This document shows, piece by piece, positions 1,224 through 46,762 of a stretch of DNA of 64,000 nt. The stretch covers positions 36,332,001 through 36,396,000 of the forward strand of contig OZ024746.1 of the NCBI GenBank assembly GCA_964016885.1, in the 5' to 3' direction. Position numbers and translations under genes: made by a program. The DNA comes from Eledone cirrhosa (Eukaryota). A model generated the notes under the pieces. It made no database searches and was not told the origin of the DNA. It was given only the letters and a program-made list of their open reading frames with translations. Position 1 is the stretch's first letter; every line of letters begins with the position of its first letter.

Positions 1224-1254
<31 letters not shown>

Positions 1255-1487
1255 AATGAAAGTTAGAGTTAATAACTCTTACTTAAACCCTGTAATCAGT
1301 AAGCTCAAAGTATAAATACCGAGCATTATAATAATAATATATATGTAGTAAGAAAGACAGTAAATCGTGTGTCTAATATTAATAGGGTTGAAAGACCACA
1401 TTTGTTTGAAATATTTAACCATGAAGCAGACAGAATTGTAAAATAAAATAAAATTATATTATACAAACCGCCTCAATAACAATTATA

Positions 1488-1562
1488 TCTCTCGGACAGA
1501 TTAATCTGTTTCGCCCTGAGTGTGTTTGCAACAGATAATCCATGGGCATCATCAGCGAGAGA
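1488..1562 (-). ncRNA. Type I hammerhead ribozyme, canonical core
   Basis: Minus strand reads TCTCTCG-CTGATGA-T-GCCC(27 nt)GGGC-GAAA-CAGATTAATCTG-TC-CGAGAGA: 7-bp stem I, 4-bp stem II, palindromic stem III, GUC triplet. Confidence 0.92.
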
Positions 1563-1959
1563 ATCTGATTAAATGCGACAAACACCTAGTACCAACGTTC
1601 ACACAGAAAAAATTAATTCATCACCTCGTGTGCCGTAAGTCAAAAGTGGTATGAGTGTATTGGGTAGAAAGAACAGTCCAACTCACGCAAATTAATAAGC
1701 TCACCTCTTGAGGGAGCCGACATATAAATGAAAGTTAGAGTTATTAACTCTTACGGAAACCCTGTAATCAGTAAGCTCAAAGTATAAATACCGAGCATTA
1801 TAATAATAATATATATGTAGTAAGAAAGACAGTAAATCGTGTGTCTAATATTACTAGGGTTGAAAGACCACATTTGTTTGAAATATTTAACCATGAAGCA
1901 GACAGAATGATAAAATAAAATAAAATTATATTATACAAACCGCCTCAATAACAATTATA

Positions 1960-2034
1960 TCTCTCGGAGAGATTAATCTGTTTCGCCCTGAGTGTGTTTG
2001 CAACAGATATTCCATGGGCGTCATCAGCGAGAGA
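1960..2034 (-). ncRNA. Type I hammerhead ribozyme, second unit (G16.2>C substitution)
   Basis: Same fold as 1488-1562, but the triplet is CUC, which breaks the 15.2-16.2 pair. Confidence 0.8.
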
Positions 2035-2971
2035 ATCTGATTAAATGCGACAAACACCTAGTACCAACGTTCAAACAGAAAAATGAATTCATCACCTCGT
2101 GTGCAGTAAGTCAGAAGTGCTATGAGTGTATTGGTTAGAAACAACAGTCCAAGACACGCAACTTAATAAGCTCACCTCTTGAGGTGAGCCGAAATATAAA
2201 TGAAAGTTAGAGTTAATAACTATTACTGAAACCCTGTAATCAGTAAGCTCAAAGTATAAATACCGAGCATTATAATAATAATATATATGTAGTAAGAAAC
2301 ACAGTAAATCGTGTGTCATATATTACTAGGGTTGAAAGACCACATTTGTTTGAAATATTATATATATATATATACCTTCTCACAAGAACACCAAATATTT
2401 TCGAAAATAAATTTTTTTATCATGTCATTTTGCGTTTTAGCATTTTTAGCGTTTTTTTCATATCCTTATACAAAAAGATATTAATTTCCATATATAAATG
2501 TATTTATATATATATACCGATGAAGTGAGAAAGAGTGAGAAAGAAAGAGGCTTCTGTGAATAAATATTAGTGACATATTCTTGCCATTCATCTCCAGAAG
2601 TTCCAGTTATCAGCATCGACTTCACGGAGAATATATTATCTCTTGGTACAATGAACATGTATTATTGTCCAAGGCTCGATATCGACACTCGTATTACGAT
2701 GGTAATCGATAGAAGTAAACTGCACTAAAGAACATTTGTGTGAAATGAAACATTCATTTAAAGAGTGTTTCTGACATACCATTTTACAGTGAATCTACGT
2801 GAGAATTACTTTAAAAAGACACGCGACTAGAATTTACAACCTTTTTCTATAAGTCTATTTAATTGATCAAATTGTTGGGATGTTGATTCGGAAAAATGGT
2901 GAGGTATTTTATTTATATTTGTTCGTATATTTTATATATATACAGGAAAAGCTTTCATTATTTAATCTTCA

Positions 2972-4814: not shown

Positions 4815-4924
4815 GAATCAGTATTGATTCAGTTTGAATCTGGAAGTGGCTGTTCAAGCTGCAAGGGCTCAGCTGTTGGGTTCTGAATCTTTATAACATA
4901 AATATAGAATATTAGTCTACGACT

Positions 4925-5190
4925 TCATTTATACCATAAACGTGGTTTGCATTTGCGTGTAATTGTTTTCACTGGTCCAAATAATTACGTATTATCTTCG
5001 ATTTTTTCCGTTCTTTGCCAGGGAACGTTTCCACAAACCAAACTATCGTATTCCTGTCTTCCTTCGGTTGCAACGCTTTTCAAAATATTTATTTCTGCGT
5101 TCACAGATTGATTTTTTTAGTTTCAGAAGATCCCGTTAAGGGTGAAAGCAGCGATTATTTGCTTAAACTTTAAACTGTTATTTTAATAAA
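4925..5190 (+). repeat. Interspersed repeat family E ending in a hammerhead-like fold with CAGAAGA core, then AATAAA
   Basis: Homologous to 13800-14050(-), 44742-44801(+) and 46430-46621(+). Each ends against a microsatellite. Confidence 0.8.
5103..5178 (+). ncRNA. Hammerhead-like RNA, atypical U4>A core (family E)
   Basis: ACAG..AGTTT-CAGAAGA-T-CCC-GTTAA-GGG-T-GAAA-GCA...TGC-TT-AAACT..CTGT. All three stems form. Confidence 0.5.
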
Positions 5191-5193
5191 TTA

Positions 5194-5277
<84 letters not shown>

Positions 5278-5431
5278 GTGTGCGTGTTTGTGCGTGTGTG
5301 TGTATGTGTGTGTGTGTGTGTTATGTGTATGTTTTTGTATGTGTGTTAGTGAGTGCTTGAATTAGAATACGAGGCTGAATTAACGTGTATGTACAGTTGC
5401 TCTTGGGAATCATTAATTATATATATATACA

Positions 5432-5718
<287 letters not shown>

Positions 5719-5729
5719 GAAAAAGTATG

Positions 5730-5826
5730 ACCCCGACGGCAGAGCTCAAGCCGATTCGACGGCTATTTGTGAACTAAATTGGAATTTTTAGCCTGGTGAA
5801 TAAACAGCCGACAATTTCAAGGGGGT
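5730..5826 (-). ncRNA. Degenerate hammerhead (family C, left arm)
   Basis: Reverse complement of 7605-7701 with core changes (TTGAAAT, GAAT). Confidence 0.45.
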
Positions 5827-7604
5827 ATTTCCTTATATGGGAAGATTGTAGTTGTCAACAGGATTGGTTAACATTTGTTGTAAACGCAAATAAGTCTATC
5901 AGGGCATTTGATGGTAGGTAGGGGTGGCTAAACATGCCTGTAGAACAATAGGGGATTGAGTGGAGCGGAGAGGCGTTGAAAGTGATATGTATACAGAGAA
6001 TTTCTAAGGATAGTGAATGAAGTGGAGGAAGGAGGTTATAGAATAGGTAAATCGAATGAGAGTAGGAGACAATAAAAGATAATAGAAAGAAATAAAAAAA
6101 AAATATAAAATTAGATAGTGAGAAATTAATTAAAAAAATCACAATGCTATCTTACAATTACATGTTAATAAGTTGAGAATAGAAACAATTGTAGAAATTG
6201 AGTAGTACCAGTACTGATACAGAATTAAATGGGTTTAACACGTCTGCTATAAGTTGTTAGTAAAACGTGTTCAGCCAATTCTATCTTAAAATTCCAGGAT
6301 TGCGGAAACTGATGCTCCAGAGGCCCGATGGGCGGCATCGGGGTAGGCGAAGGGGAAAAGCAGACGAGGAAGGAAATAGGGGGCGGAAGGAAGTGATAGG
6401 ATGAGACAGGTGGAAGAAGAAGACAAAGAGTAAAAGAAAAGAGATACACGTACCTAGGTAAGCTTGGGTTTCCCCTAACTTATTCGCCAAGTAGGTGGCA
6501 TCAGCCCTTGTCTATTCACCCGGGTCGTTATGGGGTTTGAGGGCGAGGTAAGTCCTACGCAATCTGTGTTTTCCTGCGGGTACCAGTTCCTCTTTCTTGA
6601 TCAGGAATTGGTCCTTCGAAACATCATTTGTAATGTTTCCTCCGATAATAAGTTACACGGATAGCGTCCTCCCGTGTAAGAGTTTGCTTTGGAAAGTAAC
6701 CTAAAATCTCACTTGGAGCTTACTGTCCAAAGCTAACTCTTACACGGGAGGACGCCGTCCGTGAAAATTATGCTCGGATGAAACATTACAAATGCTGTTT
6801 TCGAAGGACCAACTCCTAAACAAGAAAAAGGAACTGGTAACCGCATGCAAACACAGATTGCGTATGACTTACCTCGCCCTCAAACCCCATAACGACCCGG
6901 GTGGGTAGACAAGTACTGATACCCCCCCCCCCCCTACTTGGTGAATATGTTAGGGGAAACCCCGGCTTACCTAAGTAGATGTATCTCTTTTCTTTTCTTT
7001 TCCTCTTTGTCTTCTTCTTCCCCTTGTCTCATCCTATCACTTCCTTCCAGCCCATATTTTCTCACTCGTCTGCTTTTCCCCTTCGCCTACCCTGATGCAG
7101 CCCATCGGGCCTCTATAGCATCAGTTCCCCACCCCTGTAATTTTAAGATAGATTTGGCTTAACACGTTTTACTAACTACTTATAGCCGACGTGTTAAACC
7201 CATTTAATTCTGTATCAGTTCTGGTACTACTCAATTTCTACAGTTTTTTTCTATTCTCAACTTATTAACGTGTAATTTTAAGATAGCATTGTGATTTTTT
7301 TAAATTAATTTCTCACTATCTAATTTTATTATTTTTTTAATTTCTTTCTATTATCTTTTATTTCTCCTACTCTCATTCGATTTACCTATTCTATAACGTC
7401 CCTCCTCCACTTCATTCACTATCCTTAGAATCTGCTTTATACATATCACTTTCAACGCTTCACCGCTCGACTCACTCCACTATAGTTCTACAGGCAAGTT
7501 CAGCCACCCCTACTTCCCACCAAATGTCATGATAGACTTATTTGTGTTTACAACAAATTTTACAACTACAATTTTACAACTACAATCTTCCCATATAAGG
7601 AAGT

Positions 7605-7701
7605 ACCCCTTTGAAAAGTTCGGCTATTTATTCACCAGGCTAAACATTCTAATTTAGTCCAGAAAAAGCCGCCGAAACGGCTTGAGCTTTGCCGTCGGGG
7701 T
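7605..7701 (+). ncRNA. Putative type I hammerhead ribozyme, U3-A8 core variant (family C)
   Basis: ACCCC(T)-TTGAAAA-G-TT-CGGCT...AGCCG-C-C-GAAA-CGGC-TTGAGCTTT-GCCG-TC-GGGGT. GUC ends at 7696. Position is 3' of a GIY-YIG remnant, as expected for Penelope pLTR ribozymes. Confidence 0.75.
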
Positions 7702-8393
7702 CATACTTTTTCCTATTTCCCACTCTACTAACCTAAGTATTGAGTACTCTGGTGCGTTATGGACCATCTGGTTCCTTACCACAATTCCTTTGTTATATAT
7801 TTATATACGTATATTTATATATGTATATTTATATATGTATATTTATATATGTATATTTATATATATGCATCTATATATATATTAAATATACATATAAACA
7901 TATTGATATTTCCTAATTTTTTAACCATTCTAATGAGGCGAAATATCTAGAAATTTTCTAAAGATAAACATCTTGGAACATAACCAGAAATTCAAACATT
8001 TGCTATCGCTTCAATAAATTGACTTTGGTATTTTCATCAATGTGATACAATTCAAATAAAAGATGGTAACTGCTTAATGATGTGAAAATCGCCAGACGAG
8101 ATCGAAGACGTGTTGTCGAAGGAGTTAACCGAAGATGATATTCGACATTTACGCAACTCAATGTCCCATGAATATCACCAAGAAATCGAATTATCTTTGT
8201 AAACAGTTTACTTTAGTAGATGCGTGTTTGCATATATTTATGTCTAAATATATGTCAATGTAGGCATACTTACATAGTCATAACTAAACACACTTACATA
8301 CTCACATATACAAGCACACATATCCCCCATATATATATATATATTTGTATATATATATATATACATACATATATATTTATATACATATATATG

Positions 8394-11939: not shown

Positions 11940-13799
11940 GTGTTAGTGGGTGTGTGTATGTGTGTGTGTGTGTGCTTGTATGCAAATGTACATGTGGGTG
12001 CGTCTGTATTTGAGCATAGACTATAAGTAGCCGATATAGCATAAATATACATTTATACATATATACGTATTTCAAATGTAAGCTAAAACGAAGGTGAGAA
12101 AATTAAACCGATTTTCAATTCTAGACGGGCTTCCATTAAAAGCTAAGTTTATTATTCGGTCAAGAACTACATACTTGAGGCTCTACTATATTATATCACA
12201 GATAGTTTCATTTTGAATTGAGCATTCTAATTCACTTATTATTAGGAACCTGAATACACATCCTCCATCACTGATGGATTAAATGTAGTTATATTCTCAA
12301 CGGGAAACGTCAATGTACCTGTTGGTAGTGACTATATAACATTGAAAGGAGTCATTTGAATGAACAGTTATCCTGATGTAATTTTTAATGTAGAGGCGTT
12401 ATTAGAATTCTGTTGCCTCTTTATTAAGAACACACTCTTCCAGCACAAATACGTCCATAAATACACTAGATATATCGGAAATAGTAGACACAAATGAATT
12501 TTTCTTGTCTATTATTTGTTCGATTCTGTATTGGTTGTACTTCTTAAGTGAGAGACTAACCTGTTAACTAGTCAGCATCTAGTTATCTACAGTATGAGAC
12601 TCTATACATCTCGAAAGAAAAATAAAAGGATGAAGGTCTAGCTCGTCCTACATCATAAATTTGGAAGTGCTTGCAGTTAAGGAAACCAGGAACATGTATG
12701 CTGATAATAAAGCATCCACATTTGTGGAGCTATCTCAGCAAACTGAGGACGTTAAAACTGGACGTAAACTGTTAAACTCATCATTTCATTTGTTGTTTAG
12801 GAAATATTGCGGGCGAACGCGGTTTAGTGTGGTGCCGAGAGATTTCAGGACGCCTTCGTGCATTGGAGTGATCTAAGATGCCATCTAAGCAAAGAAGAAG
12901 GCTTACACAAGTTGACTTGTAAATAAGCCCTCCTTCTTGCAATTTCGGTACAATCAATTGCGAAAAGTAGCAGCGAAATGAAATAAGGCGTCCAAATATA
13001 AGACCGTTGAGGTTAAACTGGAATTCGATTTCAGATGAGCGAATAATATGATCTGGCAGACCCTCGGTCGACCTCGTAATTCGAACTCTTTCTCTTCCGC
13101 CTGCTAACAAAAATGGGTTTGAAGATCTCTCGTCAGAGGGGTGTATGCTTGCGAGATGGAGAGAATACTTTCCTTTACATTTTCTTTAATATTGTAGCAT
13201 TGAAGGAATATACCTTTCATTGTATCATTCTTTGTAGTGTTACCGAGGCATTTGTAATGTTATTTATGTATATATTTAAAATATATTTATTATGTTATTC
13301 TACTGTAAATTTATTTATATGCTCTTGTTTATATTTTCATTCTCACTACTCTCAACAATCTATAAAATTACATACATATTGCAACTCTCTCTATATATAT
13401 ATATCACACACACACATATACATATACATCTAAAGAGAGAAGGGGAGATGTAGAAAGAGAGATTGAGATAGGTCGTTATACAGAGAGAGGTACAAGATAA
13501 TCAGATAGAGAGACAGAGAGAATGGCGACGAATGCTGGTTCACACACACACACACACACAGACACATACATATATAAAGAGAGAGAAAGAGAGAGAGAGA
13601 TAGTGGGATAGAGATATATAGATAGAGAAAGAGAGAGAGAGAGAGATAGAGAGACAGAGAGAGAGATAGAGATCTGCGCGTTCTTTATTGTTCTCCATTC
13701 TGTACAGGAAGAGAGAGAGGGGGTATGAGTGTGAGAGAGAGAGACACACAGTGAGAGAGAGGGTATGAGAAAAAGGGAGAGGGGTTGAGAAAGAAAGAA

Positions 13800-14050
13800 A
13801 GTTTAAGCAAAGAATCGCTGCTTTCAACATTAATGGGATCTTCTGAAACTAAAGAATTTAATCTGTTAACGTAGAATTAAATATTTCGAGAAACGTTGCA
13901 ACCGAAGGAAAACAGGAAGACGATATTTTGGTTCGTGAAGACGTTCCCTGGTAATGACGGAAAAAAAGCGAGGACAAAACGTTGTTATGTGGACCGAGAA
14001 GAACAATTTCCTTCAAAGACAAGACCAAGTGTATGGTGTAAATGGAGTCG
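13800..14050 (-). repeat. Family E copy with CAGAAGA hammerhead-like 3' end
   Basis: Reverse complement of 4925-5170. GGGATCTTCTGAAACT at about 13835-13850. Confidence 0.8.
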
Positions 14051-14138
14051 TTAAAAGAACCGAATGATTTCCAGCTCCGGAGTTTAAGAATGATGTAAAG
14101 AAAATTATTAACGAAAAGACAGAGGTTATTAAAATAGG

Positions 14139-14249
14139 TGTTTCTACTTTTGGTGCAAGGCCAGCAATTAACTAGTACATTACTGGTACTTTATTTTATC
14201 GACCCCATAAGGATGAAACGCAAAGTTAACCTCGACGGTATTTTAAATT
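14139..14249 (-). mobile_element. tRNA-derived SINE, 3' half
   Basis: CTGGTACTTTATTTTATCGACCCCATAAGGATGAAA. Confidence 0.85.
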
Positions 14250-14399
14250 TGCCTTAAACAAGTAAAAGTAAATAGTGAAGATTTAGGCCAGTACATGCGT
14301 ATGCGGCGACGGACATACATATACAGATACATAAGCACACACAAATACACACGCACATGCACCCACGCGCGTGTGTAAACCTCATGTATTTCTACAGTA

Positions 14400-14873: not shown

Positions 14874-14969
14874 CGAAGGAAATGTGGTAAGGAACCAGGT
14901 GGACCGTTTTTTTAGTCCAGAATTAGCCGTCGAAACGGCTTGAGCTCAGCTGTCGGGGTCTTACTGGTT

Positions 14970-14972
<3 letters not shown>
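14872..14972. mobile_element. Miniature inverted derivative of family C pLTR in (TA)n
   Basis: Left part is the reverse complement of 7760-7795. Right part matches the 3' half of the family C hammerhead region (7655-7715). Confidence 0.75.
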
Positions 14973-15017
<45 letters not shown>

Positions 15018-17109: not shown

Positions 17110-18640
17110 GATGAGTGCTGCTTAAAATCACCCTACAGACGTCCCTATAGCGAGTCAATTTCCTGGACGGTACCCTCAACCTGGAAAATGATATGTACTA
17201 ACCATAGCCGAAACAAACGGCAACATAGACTACATCCACCGCCGCTATAACCATCCTAGAAGCATCACCAATAACCTGCTTTAAAAGATTTCCGTTTGTC
17301 CGCTAATGAACATATGTTCGATGAACCCGCGCCTTATTACAATCAGGCCCTCAGCCAAGCGGCTTTCGGGGAGGAAATCTACTTTTATCCAGCCTCCCCT
17401 AGCGGAAGCAGCAGATGACGCCACCACTCACGCCACGTCACGTGGTTCAACCCTCCCCACAATGCCGAGATTGCAACACCAATCGGGAAAATCTTCTTTA
17501 GAATCCTCGAAAAAAATTCCCACTACAACATCGCTACCACAATATAATCAACAAAAACACTATCAAACTCTCTTACAGCACCACACCCGACTTCGTACAA
17601 AACATCGCCTCCTCAAACAACAAGAGAGTCATCTCCTTTGGAAGAAACAACCTAGACATTAGTAGGAGAGCCGACCTGGAGGTGTAACTGTCCCGATAGA
17701 TCTGCGTGGCCCATCAACAACAGATGCCGAGAACGTAACGTGATCTACCAATGCGACGTGAGGACAGAAAACTCCAACAAAGCCTATATAGTATTAACCG
17801 CTCGTGACTTTAAGACCCGTCTCTACCAACACCGACATACGTTCTGAAACCCGGCCCGGCGACATGACACTACACTTTCGAGCCACATATGGGTCCTCCA
17901 AGTTAATAACATCACATACCATCTTACTTGGAGCTTACTCTCCAAGGCTAACACCTACAAGGGAAGACGCCGGTCGTGTAACTTATGCCCGGAGGAAACA
18001 ATACAAATGCTGTTTACGACCAACTCCTAAACAAATAAGACGAACTTGTAACCGCATGTAAACACCGATTGCGTAGACATACCTTGCCCTCAAACCCCTC
18101 TTGATCCGGGTGGGTAGACAATGGCTGTAACATCCTTCTTTTCCACACTTGCCGAACAAAATAGGGGAAACCCCGGCATAGATAAGTAGATGTAATTCTT
18201 TTCTTGTTTCCCCTTATCTCCTCTTCCAATTCCGTCCACTCCCTCTCCTCTCCATTTTCCTTCTTCCTATTTTGCTTACCCTGAGACAGCCCATCGGGCT
18301 TTTGTAGCCTCATCACCCCCACCCCCTTAAATTGTATATAGCATTAGCCGAAAACGCAATACCAGCTGACGCAATACCAGCTAAAATTATAGCAGCTGCC
18401 TTCATTGATCTACAGGCATGTTGACTCACCCACCACCAGGAAATATTTAATTATGTTTACAAGAAATTTTGACCAATCCTTTTGACAACAACAATTTTCA
18501 AAATGAATGATTATCGCACGTCCATATATGGAATTACCCCTTGAAAAGTTTGGCTACTTACTACCACTCTAAACATCTAATTTGGTCCAGAAATAGCCGT
18601 CGACACGGCCTGAGATGCGCAGTCGGGGTCTTGAACATTT
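17110..18640 (+). mobile_element. Penelope-like retroelement 3' fragment (RT C-terminus/linker, GIY-YIG endonuclease, pLTR), pseudogenised
   Basis: Translation with stops gives RLS.N..FD...PYYNQAL..SGF, VTWFNPPHN, C.CP...PINNRC..RNVIYQCDV, KAYI.LT..DFKTRLYQH, CNLCPEE, LLN...ELV.ACKHR. The 3' UTR is homologous to 6720-7712. Confidence 0.85.
18536..18629 (+). ncRNA. Family C hammerhead homolog in diverged Penelope copy (U3-A8 core, GAAA>GACA)
   Basis: ACCCC-TTGAAAA-G-TT-TGGCTA...TAGCCG-T-C-GACA-CGGC...GCAG-TC-GGGGT. Confidence 0.6.
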
Positions 18641-44476: not shown

Positions 44477-44741
44477 ATATAATTGATATCAATGAGGTGC
44501 GAGTTCATCTTTAACATGTTTTTATTTTCGTTGTATTGTTGTTACTATGAGCTATAATTTATCGATGTATCGATAGCTCTTCATCTCTTCATTGAGAGCT
44601 TTGTGTCAGCCTCAGAAGATTGATTTCGAAAGATGCTACTTGCTGTTGCAAGTAGGATTTTACTCATACATATATTTAACTCATTTTACTCATACATATA
44701 TATGTATATATACATATATATACATATATATGTATGAGAAT

Positions 44742-44801
44742 ATCCCGTTAAGGGTGAAAGCAGCTATTCTTTGCTTAAACTTTAATCTGTTATTTTAATA
44801 A
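44742..44801 (+). repeat. Family E 3'-terminal fragment
   Basis: ATCCCGTTAAGGGTGAAAGCAGC...TGCTTAAACTTTAATCTGTTATTTTAATAAA. Confidence 0.85.
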
Positions 44802-44805
44802 AGAA

Positions 44806-45142: not shown

Positions 45143-45323
45143 CGAAGGAAATGTGGTAAGGTACCAGGTGGACCATAACGCACCAAAGTACTCAATACTT
45201 AGGGTAGTAGAGTGGGTAATAGGAACGAGTAGGACCCCGACGGCTAATTGTGGACTAAATTAGTCTGTAGTCCAGAATTAGCCGTCGAAACGGCTTGAGC
45301 TCAGCTGTCGATGTCCTACTCGT

Positions 45324-45330
<7 letters not shown>
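45141..45330. mobile_element. Miniature fold-back derivative of family C pLTR in (TA)n
   Basis: 45141-45260 is the reverse complement of the family C 3' end (7655-7795 with a deletion). 45268-45330 is the sense 3' half of the hammerhead. Confidence 0.8.
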
Positions 45331-45383
<53 letters not shown>

Positions 45384-46429
45384 ATGTGTGTGTGTGTGTG
45401 TAAGGGGGGGGGGGGGGGGTGTACGTGTGTGTATGTATATATATATATACATATATATGTATATATATATACGCATATATATGTGTGTGTGTGTATATAC
45501 TTATAGTTATATACACACTTGCGTGAGAACATACGCACGCACAACCATATTTTTAATGGATAGGCATACAGAGAGATAGAGAATGGGTGAGAAAGGTAGA
45601 GAGAGTTATGTTGAGATATGAACTGAAATACGATCGAAATAATAACATTAACAAGTGTAAGCTGTACCTATGTAATGTTATTTAGCTATTTCTGATAACA
45701 TCAACACTGTGGCTTCAGAACCTATCTAAACATTTCACTATTATATCTATGTTATAACATGATTAACACCTCATAATTTCTCTCTCTCACTCTCTCTCGT
45801 TCTCTTTCTCTCTTTTTTTCTCACTCTCTCTTTGCTTGTATACATATTGTATATACAGAACACATCTACCATATTCCAGGACAGCCTCACGATGTTCAGG
45901 TGATAAGGCATCTTAAATATATCACGTTATTCCATCTAAAATTAATGTTGCCACCAAAACACAAAATATCCTTTAACTGTTGCTGAGTTATCAGCACTAT
46001 CACGTGACCTGAACCAGCCGCTTTAGACCTGTGAAAGCGTGGCCACCCCACTACAATTCTCCGTTTGGCGCTTGACATGAAACAGCTGCTATGAGGTGAC
46101 GTCTCATTCTACATTATCACAATAATGCTATCTTCTTTCAATTCTAGTGCAACCTATATATATATATTAGAGTTAAAACAGAAAACAAAAATAAAAAACA
46201 AAAAAAAAACTTATTTGCATAGGTAAGTATATATTACCTGTATGTTTTGTGAAGGTACGTATACTTTCTCGTACGTATATTTGATTGTATATGTTAGGGC
46301 ATATATTTGTTATATATTCTGGTACATATGCTTTTGGTTATGTGTATACGAGAGTTTTGCGTCTGTGTGAGTATGCGGGTTCGTACGTATGTTGGGTGTG
46401 TGTATATGTGTACTTCATGTTTTGGTTGA

Positions 46430-46762
<333 letters not shown>

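Follow-up and report, generated by a model that had tools for sequence, protein, structure and literature searches.

Near the 3' end of an abundant retroelement of Eledone cirrhosa lies a type I hammerhead fold that carries A in place of U at position 4 of its catalytic core. We analyzed a stretch of 64,000 nt, referred to below as the window (contig OZ024746.1 of assembly GCA_964016885.1, positions 36,332,001 to 36,396,000 of the forward strand), from this 3.0-Gb genome. Judged by its sequence, the motif is a genuine hammerhead in the pseudo-LTR position of a Penelope-like element. Hammerheads of this kind are already known; the candidate novelty is a Hydra-clade hammerhead with a long-fixed U4A change. 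Through this old substitution the hammerhead is probably, if by no means certainly, crippled and slow or dependent on protein, its fold being kept as an RNA structure used by the RT-endonuclease. The family offers a natural experiment on the role of hammerheads in Penelope-like elements: a fixed core change across a long and very successful lineage, together with rare back-mutants, a broken-stem subfamily, a decayed sister family and canonical relatives in one genome.

Hammerhead fold and host element

The CAGAAGA core stands at 5124-5130 (+), and again at 13845 (-) and 46555 (+), where the preliminary description had placed it. Read from the sequence, the layout of stems, bulge and CUU triplet within 5103-5178 also agrees with that description (Table 1). 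The other two copies are less regular than it had supposed: stem III contains a mismatch in the copy at 46555, and the copy at 13845 retains the core, but its stem II is broken and its distal stem has no 3' arm. Besides these three there is a fourth copy, interrupted within the core.

Table 1. Features of the element and its motif in the window
Position	Strand	Feature	Remarks
4906..5191	+	Copy of element 3' end, 5'-truncated, ending in microsatellite, no tail	86% identical to full element in L055
5020..5021	+	AG acceptor of 766-nt intron	~100 nt before core
5103..5111	+	Distal stem I, 5' arm	Pairs with 5170-5178 except for a mismatch at 5174; across 10 copies, 91% of cells paired
5112..5118	+	Bulge, 7 nt	From sequence
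5119..5123	+	Proximal stem I, 5' arm	Pairs with 5165-5169; invariant in 10/10 aligned copies
5124..5131	+	Core C3-A4-G5-A6-A7-G8-A9 and extra U	A4 at 5125 instead of canonical U; center of inversion hotspot
5132..5146	+	Stem II (3 bp, 5-nt loop), flanking U, G12-A13-A14	Arms 5132-5134/5140-5142; GAA 5144-5146
5147..5164	+	Stem III (4 bp, 9-nt loop)	Arms 5147-5150/5160-5163; CUU ends at 5164
5165..5190	+	Stem I 3' arms; AATAAA followed by TA repeats, the first of two 3' ends of the element	AATAAA 5185-5190
13798..14051	-	Copy of subfamily B (minor), A4 and broken stem II	181 exact copies
44737..44802	+	Fourth copy; 5' truncation falls within core	From sequence
46209..46622	+	Copy with intron donor (GT 46223), internal deletion, acceptor (AG 46451) and motif core 46555	

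The letters of a type I hammerhead are present at C3, G5, A6, G8, A9, G12-A14, A15.1-U16.1 and H17; U4 of the CUGA turn is absent. U5131 and U5143 flank stem II, and cleavage would be predicted after U5164, the equivalent of U17. In the three stems round the junction 93.5% of 201 cells are paired, compared with 20-54% in slid controls. A relaxed hammerhead descriptor matched at 5124 and at one further place in the window, and 77 control loci gave no match on their reverse strands. No Rfam hammerhead model matched in the window or at 5060-5200, and energy minimization prefers another structure to the hammerhead fold (z about -0.7 to -1.0; -12.3 for the hammerhead versus -15.1 kcal/mol in the young consensus). 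Neither folding programs nor Rfam lend support; the argument for a hammerhead draws on the letters of the core, on the three stems and on context.

The preliminary description had not recognized the motif as the hammerhead of a Penelope-like element. By its protein motifs, and with published Hydra sequences compared by eye, the carrier is a Hydra-clade Penelope-like retroelement with RT and GIY-YIG. Longer copies have about 1 kb of non-coding sequence upstream of the motif, then an ORF with RT and GIY-YIG motifs. Locus L055 holds a whole 3.3-kb unit, in which the ORF consists of a 647-aa frame and a frameshifted end and contains YRDD and VYKC..YIG. The protein has CWR at the place of RWK, DKT, CNCRNRVDC (the CxCX5C linker), CDLC (CxxC) and CKH (CxH), and lacks CCHH. 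Pfam assigned no family to three pieces of the ORF, and 619 homologues were found among 8,000 scored candidates. The element is distinct from the published Hydra-1_Obim, from which both protein and motif differ on comparison by eye. Its copies are inserted in (TA)n; most are 5'-truncated, and many form a pair with a second copy in inverted orientation. Four motif copies in 400 kb taken at random suggest some 30,000 in all. A non-LTR retrozyme, built of short non-coding tandem units with a hammerhead, was excluded as the carrier because the motif ends a 3.3-kb coding element.

A short interspersed repeat with copies at 5430-5620 and 14140-14260 (-) of the window occurs in many loci, at times inside the Penelope-like element (L015, L016, L028).

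Position 4 and constraint on the fold

Exact matches to a 33-letter pattern with position 4 left free number 14,817 genome-wide; A occupies that position in 14,687 (99.1%), T in 47, and C or G in 83, which places U4 copies at the ordinary mutation level. The older subfamilies have the same state. When chosen by motif pattern they have A4 in 62 of 67 (N7 is A in 51, U in 13 and G in 3, and loop 2 is variable); among 30 old copies chosen by upstream sequence only, with the motif ignored, A4 is found in 29 (16 with A and 11 with U at N7). A4 is thus the family state and not the decay of single copies, as proposed earlier from three copies. In contigs of three sequencing runs no other letter stood at position 4 among the matches listed, which adds no support as the runs may derive from the source sample. 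A first metagenome scan found nothing, and no U4A hammerhead was found in searches of an open-access library, the main text of Perreault 2011 and the text of Roberts 2023 included. A supposed U4 sister subfamily (912 matches) was rejected, as 16 of 20 fetched loci proved to be inversion junctions reading CTG on one strand.

The old and young consensus sequences differ at 7 of 51 motif sites, six of them in loops 2 and 3 and one a CpG decay. Upstream, 30-38% of sites differ: 87 of 230, with 41 of 136 in the stretch closer to the motif. Core and stems account for 0-1 differences in 37 sites and the loops for 6 in 14, and N7 varies. At the upstream rate, the probability of one change or fewer in the 37 core and stem sites is 3e-5, and loops differ from core and stems with a Fisher p of 0.001; the 45 nt adjoining the motif upstream, distal stem included, show only 6 differences in 43, so the contrast is partly regional and these statistics are weakened. 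Changes between subfamilies avoid the core and stems and fall in the loops, which supports constraint on the fold.

Unchanged G8, G12 and other core letters between subfamilies, combined with a free N7, are the pattern of a working hammerhead and argue against a crippled one. A natural U4A hammerhead could work as a monomer, cutting after U17, if the long distal stem I, a contact between loop 2 and the bulge, or the element's own protein offset the loss of U4; we consider this possible but unlikely. The stable 4-bp stem III and the 9-bp distal stem fit a working ribozyme, and so does the 15.2-16.2 pair, which is G-C here and C-G in 47 of 48 distinct clade motifs, a single swap on both sides. 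Other core variants can remain active in vivo, as described in the text of PMC3088659. In Anolis, the account in PMC11167929 has the hammerhead cutting only with protein, so by analogy cleavage of a U4A variant might be rescued. The clade itself points the other way: 77 related metagenome loci gave a motif in 54 cases, 48 of them distinct, and U4 is present in 46 (the other two resemble chance matches), as it is in all 25 Hydra families of the table in Craig et al. 2021 (PMC8557442). U4 is known to contact the phosphate that links A6 to N7, a published mutational scan describes weak activity for CUGA-turn mutants, single or double, other than the C3-G8 swap, and the natural U4C variant is described as much slower, though still viable (PMC3088659); by analogy, low activity would be predicted for U4A. 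Back-mutated U4 copies show no sign of spread (47 versus 83 with C or G), and neither ends nor a junction excess mark the cut site (see below). Moreover, CUU is a poor hammerhead cleavage triplet.

Young copies lie about 3.6% from their own consensus, and the stem covariation to which the preliminary description had looked was not seen within the family, no pair having changed on both sides in 10 aligned copies. Such uniformity could reflect recent spread of a dead relic free of selection, A4 having arisen in one master copy and hitchhiked with it. Both subfamily B and the sister family have spread despite broken folds, and in Anolis Poseidon core mutants are described as leaving insertion in vitro unaffected (PMC11167929), cleavage thus being dispensable there. 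A relic is nevertheless improbable, because the counts given above place the differences in loops rather than in core and stems between lineages that are 30-38% apart upstream.

In the consensus of subfamily B, stem II has lost two of its three pairs, and at least 181 exact copies exist; the fold is therefore not strictly needed for spread. Many subfamily B copies (L076-L104) turn into unrelated pyrimidine-rich sequence directly after proximal stem I, which suggests a composite element with independent spread.

A tree was computed from 53 rows, made up of 30 metagenome loci out of the 77, pieces from the genome itself with 150 residues or more, and two database proteins. In it the A4 family groups with a second abundant family, its sister, and with P0001 (support 98/88). 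The sister protein is 50% identical to that of the A4 family. The sister motif runs from CAGAA into GAAA and through a stem whose loop is 9 nt long to GUC, and has neither G8-A9 nor stem II. In an unselected sample in which both arms of a pair were counted, 71 of 141 sister alignments start within -11..+2 of CAGAA. The two motifs are probably homologous, given their position and local likeness; if so, U4A predates the split of the families and the 15.2-16.2 swap came later. The window contains a broken ORF and 3' end of the sister family at 17127-18640 (+) and copies of its motif at 7465-7826, 5715-5966 (-), 14911-14974 and 45269-45329, most of them truncated or inverted at CAGAA.

3' ends, inversion junctions and a possible role of the motif

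The loci examined contain 102 distinct intact 3' ends: 59 at AATAAA followed by TA repeats, 38 with a tail of about 87 nt, and 5 others. With 38 copies extending into the tail and none of the classed ends at the cut site, the proposal that the motif or AATAAA defines the 3' end is not supported. AATAAA is most likely one RT start rather than a ribozyme-set signal, because the two ends of Anolis Poseidon are two RT start sites.

In its 3' non-coding region the element contains a GT..AG intron of 766 nt (L055 4531-5296) that is skipped in one DNA contig, from one of three runs of one sample. Locus L063 near 4052 has the exact spliced joint, so at least one precisely intron-less copy resides in the genome. 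It is very improbable that A4 is kept as part of an A4-G5 3' splice acceptor behind a pyrimidine run, use of which would remove half of the ribozyme: the preceding 20 nt resemble a branch point, pyrimidine tract and CAG in the old and young consensus and the element does have a spliceosomal intron, but the sole spliced joint seen has its acceptor some 100 nt farther upstream, no joint to the A4-G5 AG occurs in the loci examined or among the 15 listed of 47 joints, and the conserved stems would go unexplained.

Symmetric, head-to-head inversion junctions are concentrated at position 4, with 534 centered there genome-wide; the predicted cut site has 6. At a perfect palindrome of 8 bp some 50 nt upstream the count was 5, a figure that will be too low as the search pattern spans homopolymer runs; the cut site and this palindrome were the two control sites. 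With neither a junction excess nor any classed end at the cut site, the genome shows no footprint of cleavage, and for Anolis Poseidon, too, the account in PMC11167929 has no reads ending at the cut site. The surroundings of position 4 form a 7-nt palindrome with one central mismatch, whatever letter stands there. This microhomology permits a joint at position 4 but would not on its own account for junctions a hundredfold more numerous than at the control palindrome. The excess may stem from microhomology at a cDNA length that is common. The junctions at position 4 and the starts of sister family alignments point to cDNA synthesis that ends at the 5' edge of the RNA element, and the excess hints at a structural role in copying.

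On one strand, inversion junctions at position 4 (L106-L124; 534 places) yield a canonical-looking CUGAAGA. Motif searches would score them as canonical hammerheads, though stem I is gone.

If the hammerhead is crippled, slow or protein-dependent and its fold serves the RT-endonuclease, as we favor, insertion could proceed as follows. The RT-endonuclease would nick (TA)n, and cDNA would start downstream of the motif at either of two sites, a mode demonstrated in another Penelope-like element. Synthesis would often stall after passing the three-way junction, and two opposing cDNAs would join via the 7-nt near-palindrome round position 4. Once a tandem transcript is spliced, some 155 nt would separate the motif from the start codon that follows it. 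Fast cutting there would strip off the cap, and weak cleavage may therefore be tolerated or even favored. Hammerheads in viral 5'-UTRs are described as driving translation, for which cleavage is required (PMC13725137); by analogy, a role in translation is a further possibility for a motif ahead of the ORF. More tentatively, a single U4A change before the families split may have turned the ribozyme from a knife into a landmark, catalysis decaying (fully in the sister family) and the fold marking the site of RT stop and cDNA joining. This conversion, which we regard as doubtful, would if true explain the inverted structures typical of Penelope insertions.

If the motif cuts, it is an exception to the hammerhead core rule at a position where a pyrimidine was considered necessary, and families of this kind escape motif searches. 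A motif that fails to cut would be direct evidence of a non-catalytic role, testable via the junction hotspot.

Comparison with known hammerheads

Canonical relatives occur in the same genome. Another Hydra family (L286 near 5820, L279 near 970) has a hammerhead with U4, U.U and a 2-bp stem II, and is a natural control for experiments; weaker U4 Hydra motifs lie downstream of L064 and L294. A further Hydra family (L056 6690-6740) has a 3' end with hammerhead core fragments only. The window also contains, at 1231-2359 (-), a tandem repeat of about 470-490 nt with units 96% alike, each with a canonical CUGAUGA type I hammerhead and a palindromic stem III (cores at 1555 and about 2026); it looks like a non-LTR retrozyme.

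The Hydra hammerheads tabulated by Craig et al. 2021 (PMC8557442) resemble the present motif in being type I and near the 3' end and in their extra U's, (TA)n targets and protein motifs. The U.U at the base of stem II, which the preliminary description had set apart as a feature of the family, is not a new trait: U stands on both sides of stem II in 14 of the 25 published families and U.U in 24 of the 48 metagenome motifs, so it is ordinary in the clade. A U at the cut site is found in 10 of the 25. What is unusual, as far as these motifs reveal, is A4, the swapped G15.2-C16.2 pair, the long distal stem I of 9 bp and loop III, which has 9 nt here and 1-3 nt in the tabulated families.

The minimal Penelope-like hammerheads of Cervera and de la Pena 2014 (PMC4209133) share the pseudo-LTR site and an extra nucleotide after A9. 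The text of that study describes low activity in vitro, a need for dimers, retention of U4 and a U3-A8 core variant. In contrast, stem III is of monomer size here and the G10.1-C11.1 pair is absent. The core variants of Perreault et al. 2011 (PMC3088659) have in common with ours a single change in the CUGA turn; the natural variants U4C and A6C are slow cutters, and the main text does not name U4A.

Anolis Poseidon PAc, as presented by Frangieh et al. 2024 (PMC11167929), shares two 3' ends, an optional tail, AT-rich targets and a hammerhead set off from the element end. PAc belongs to the Poseidon clade and has a canonical core in a hammerhead that overlaps the ORF start, whereas the present element combines a tail of about 87 nt with a motif upstream of the ORF.
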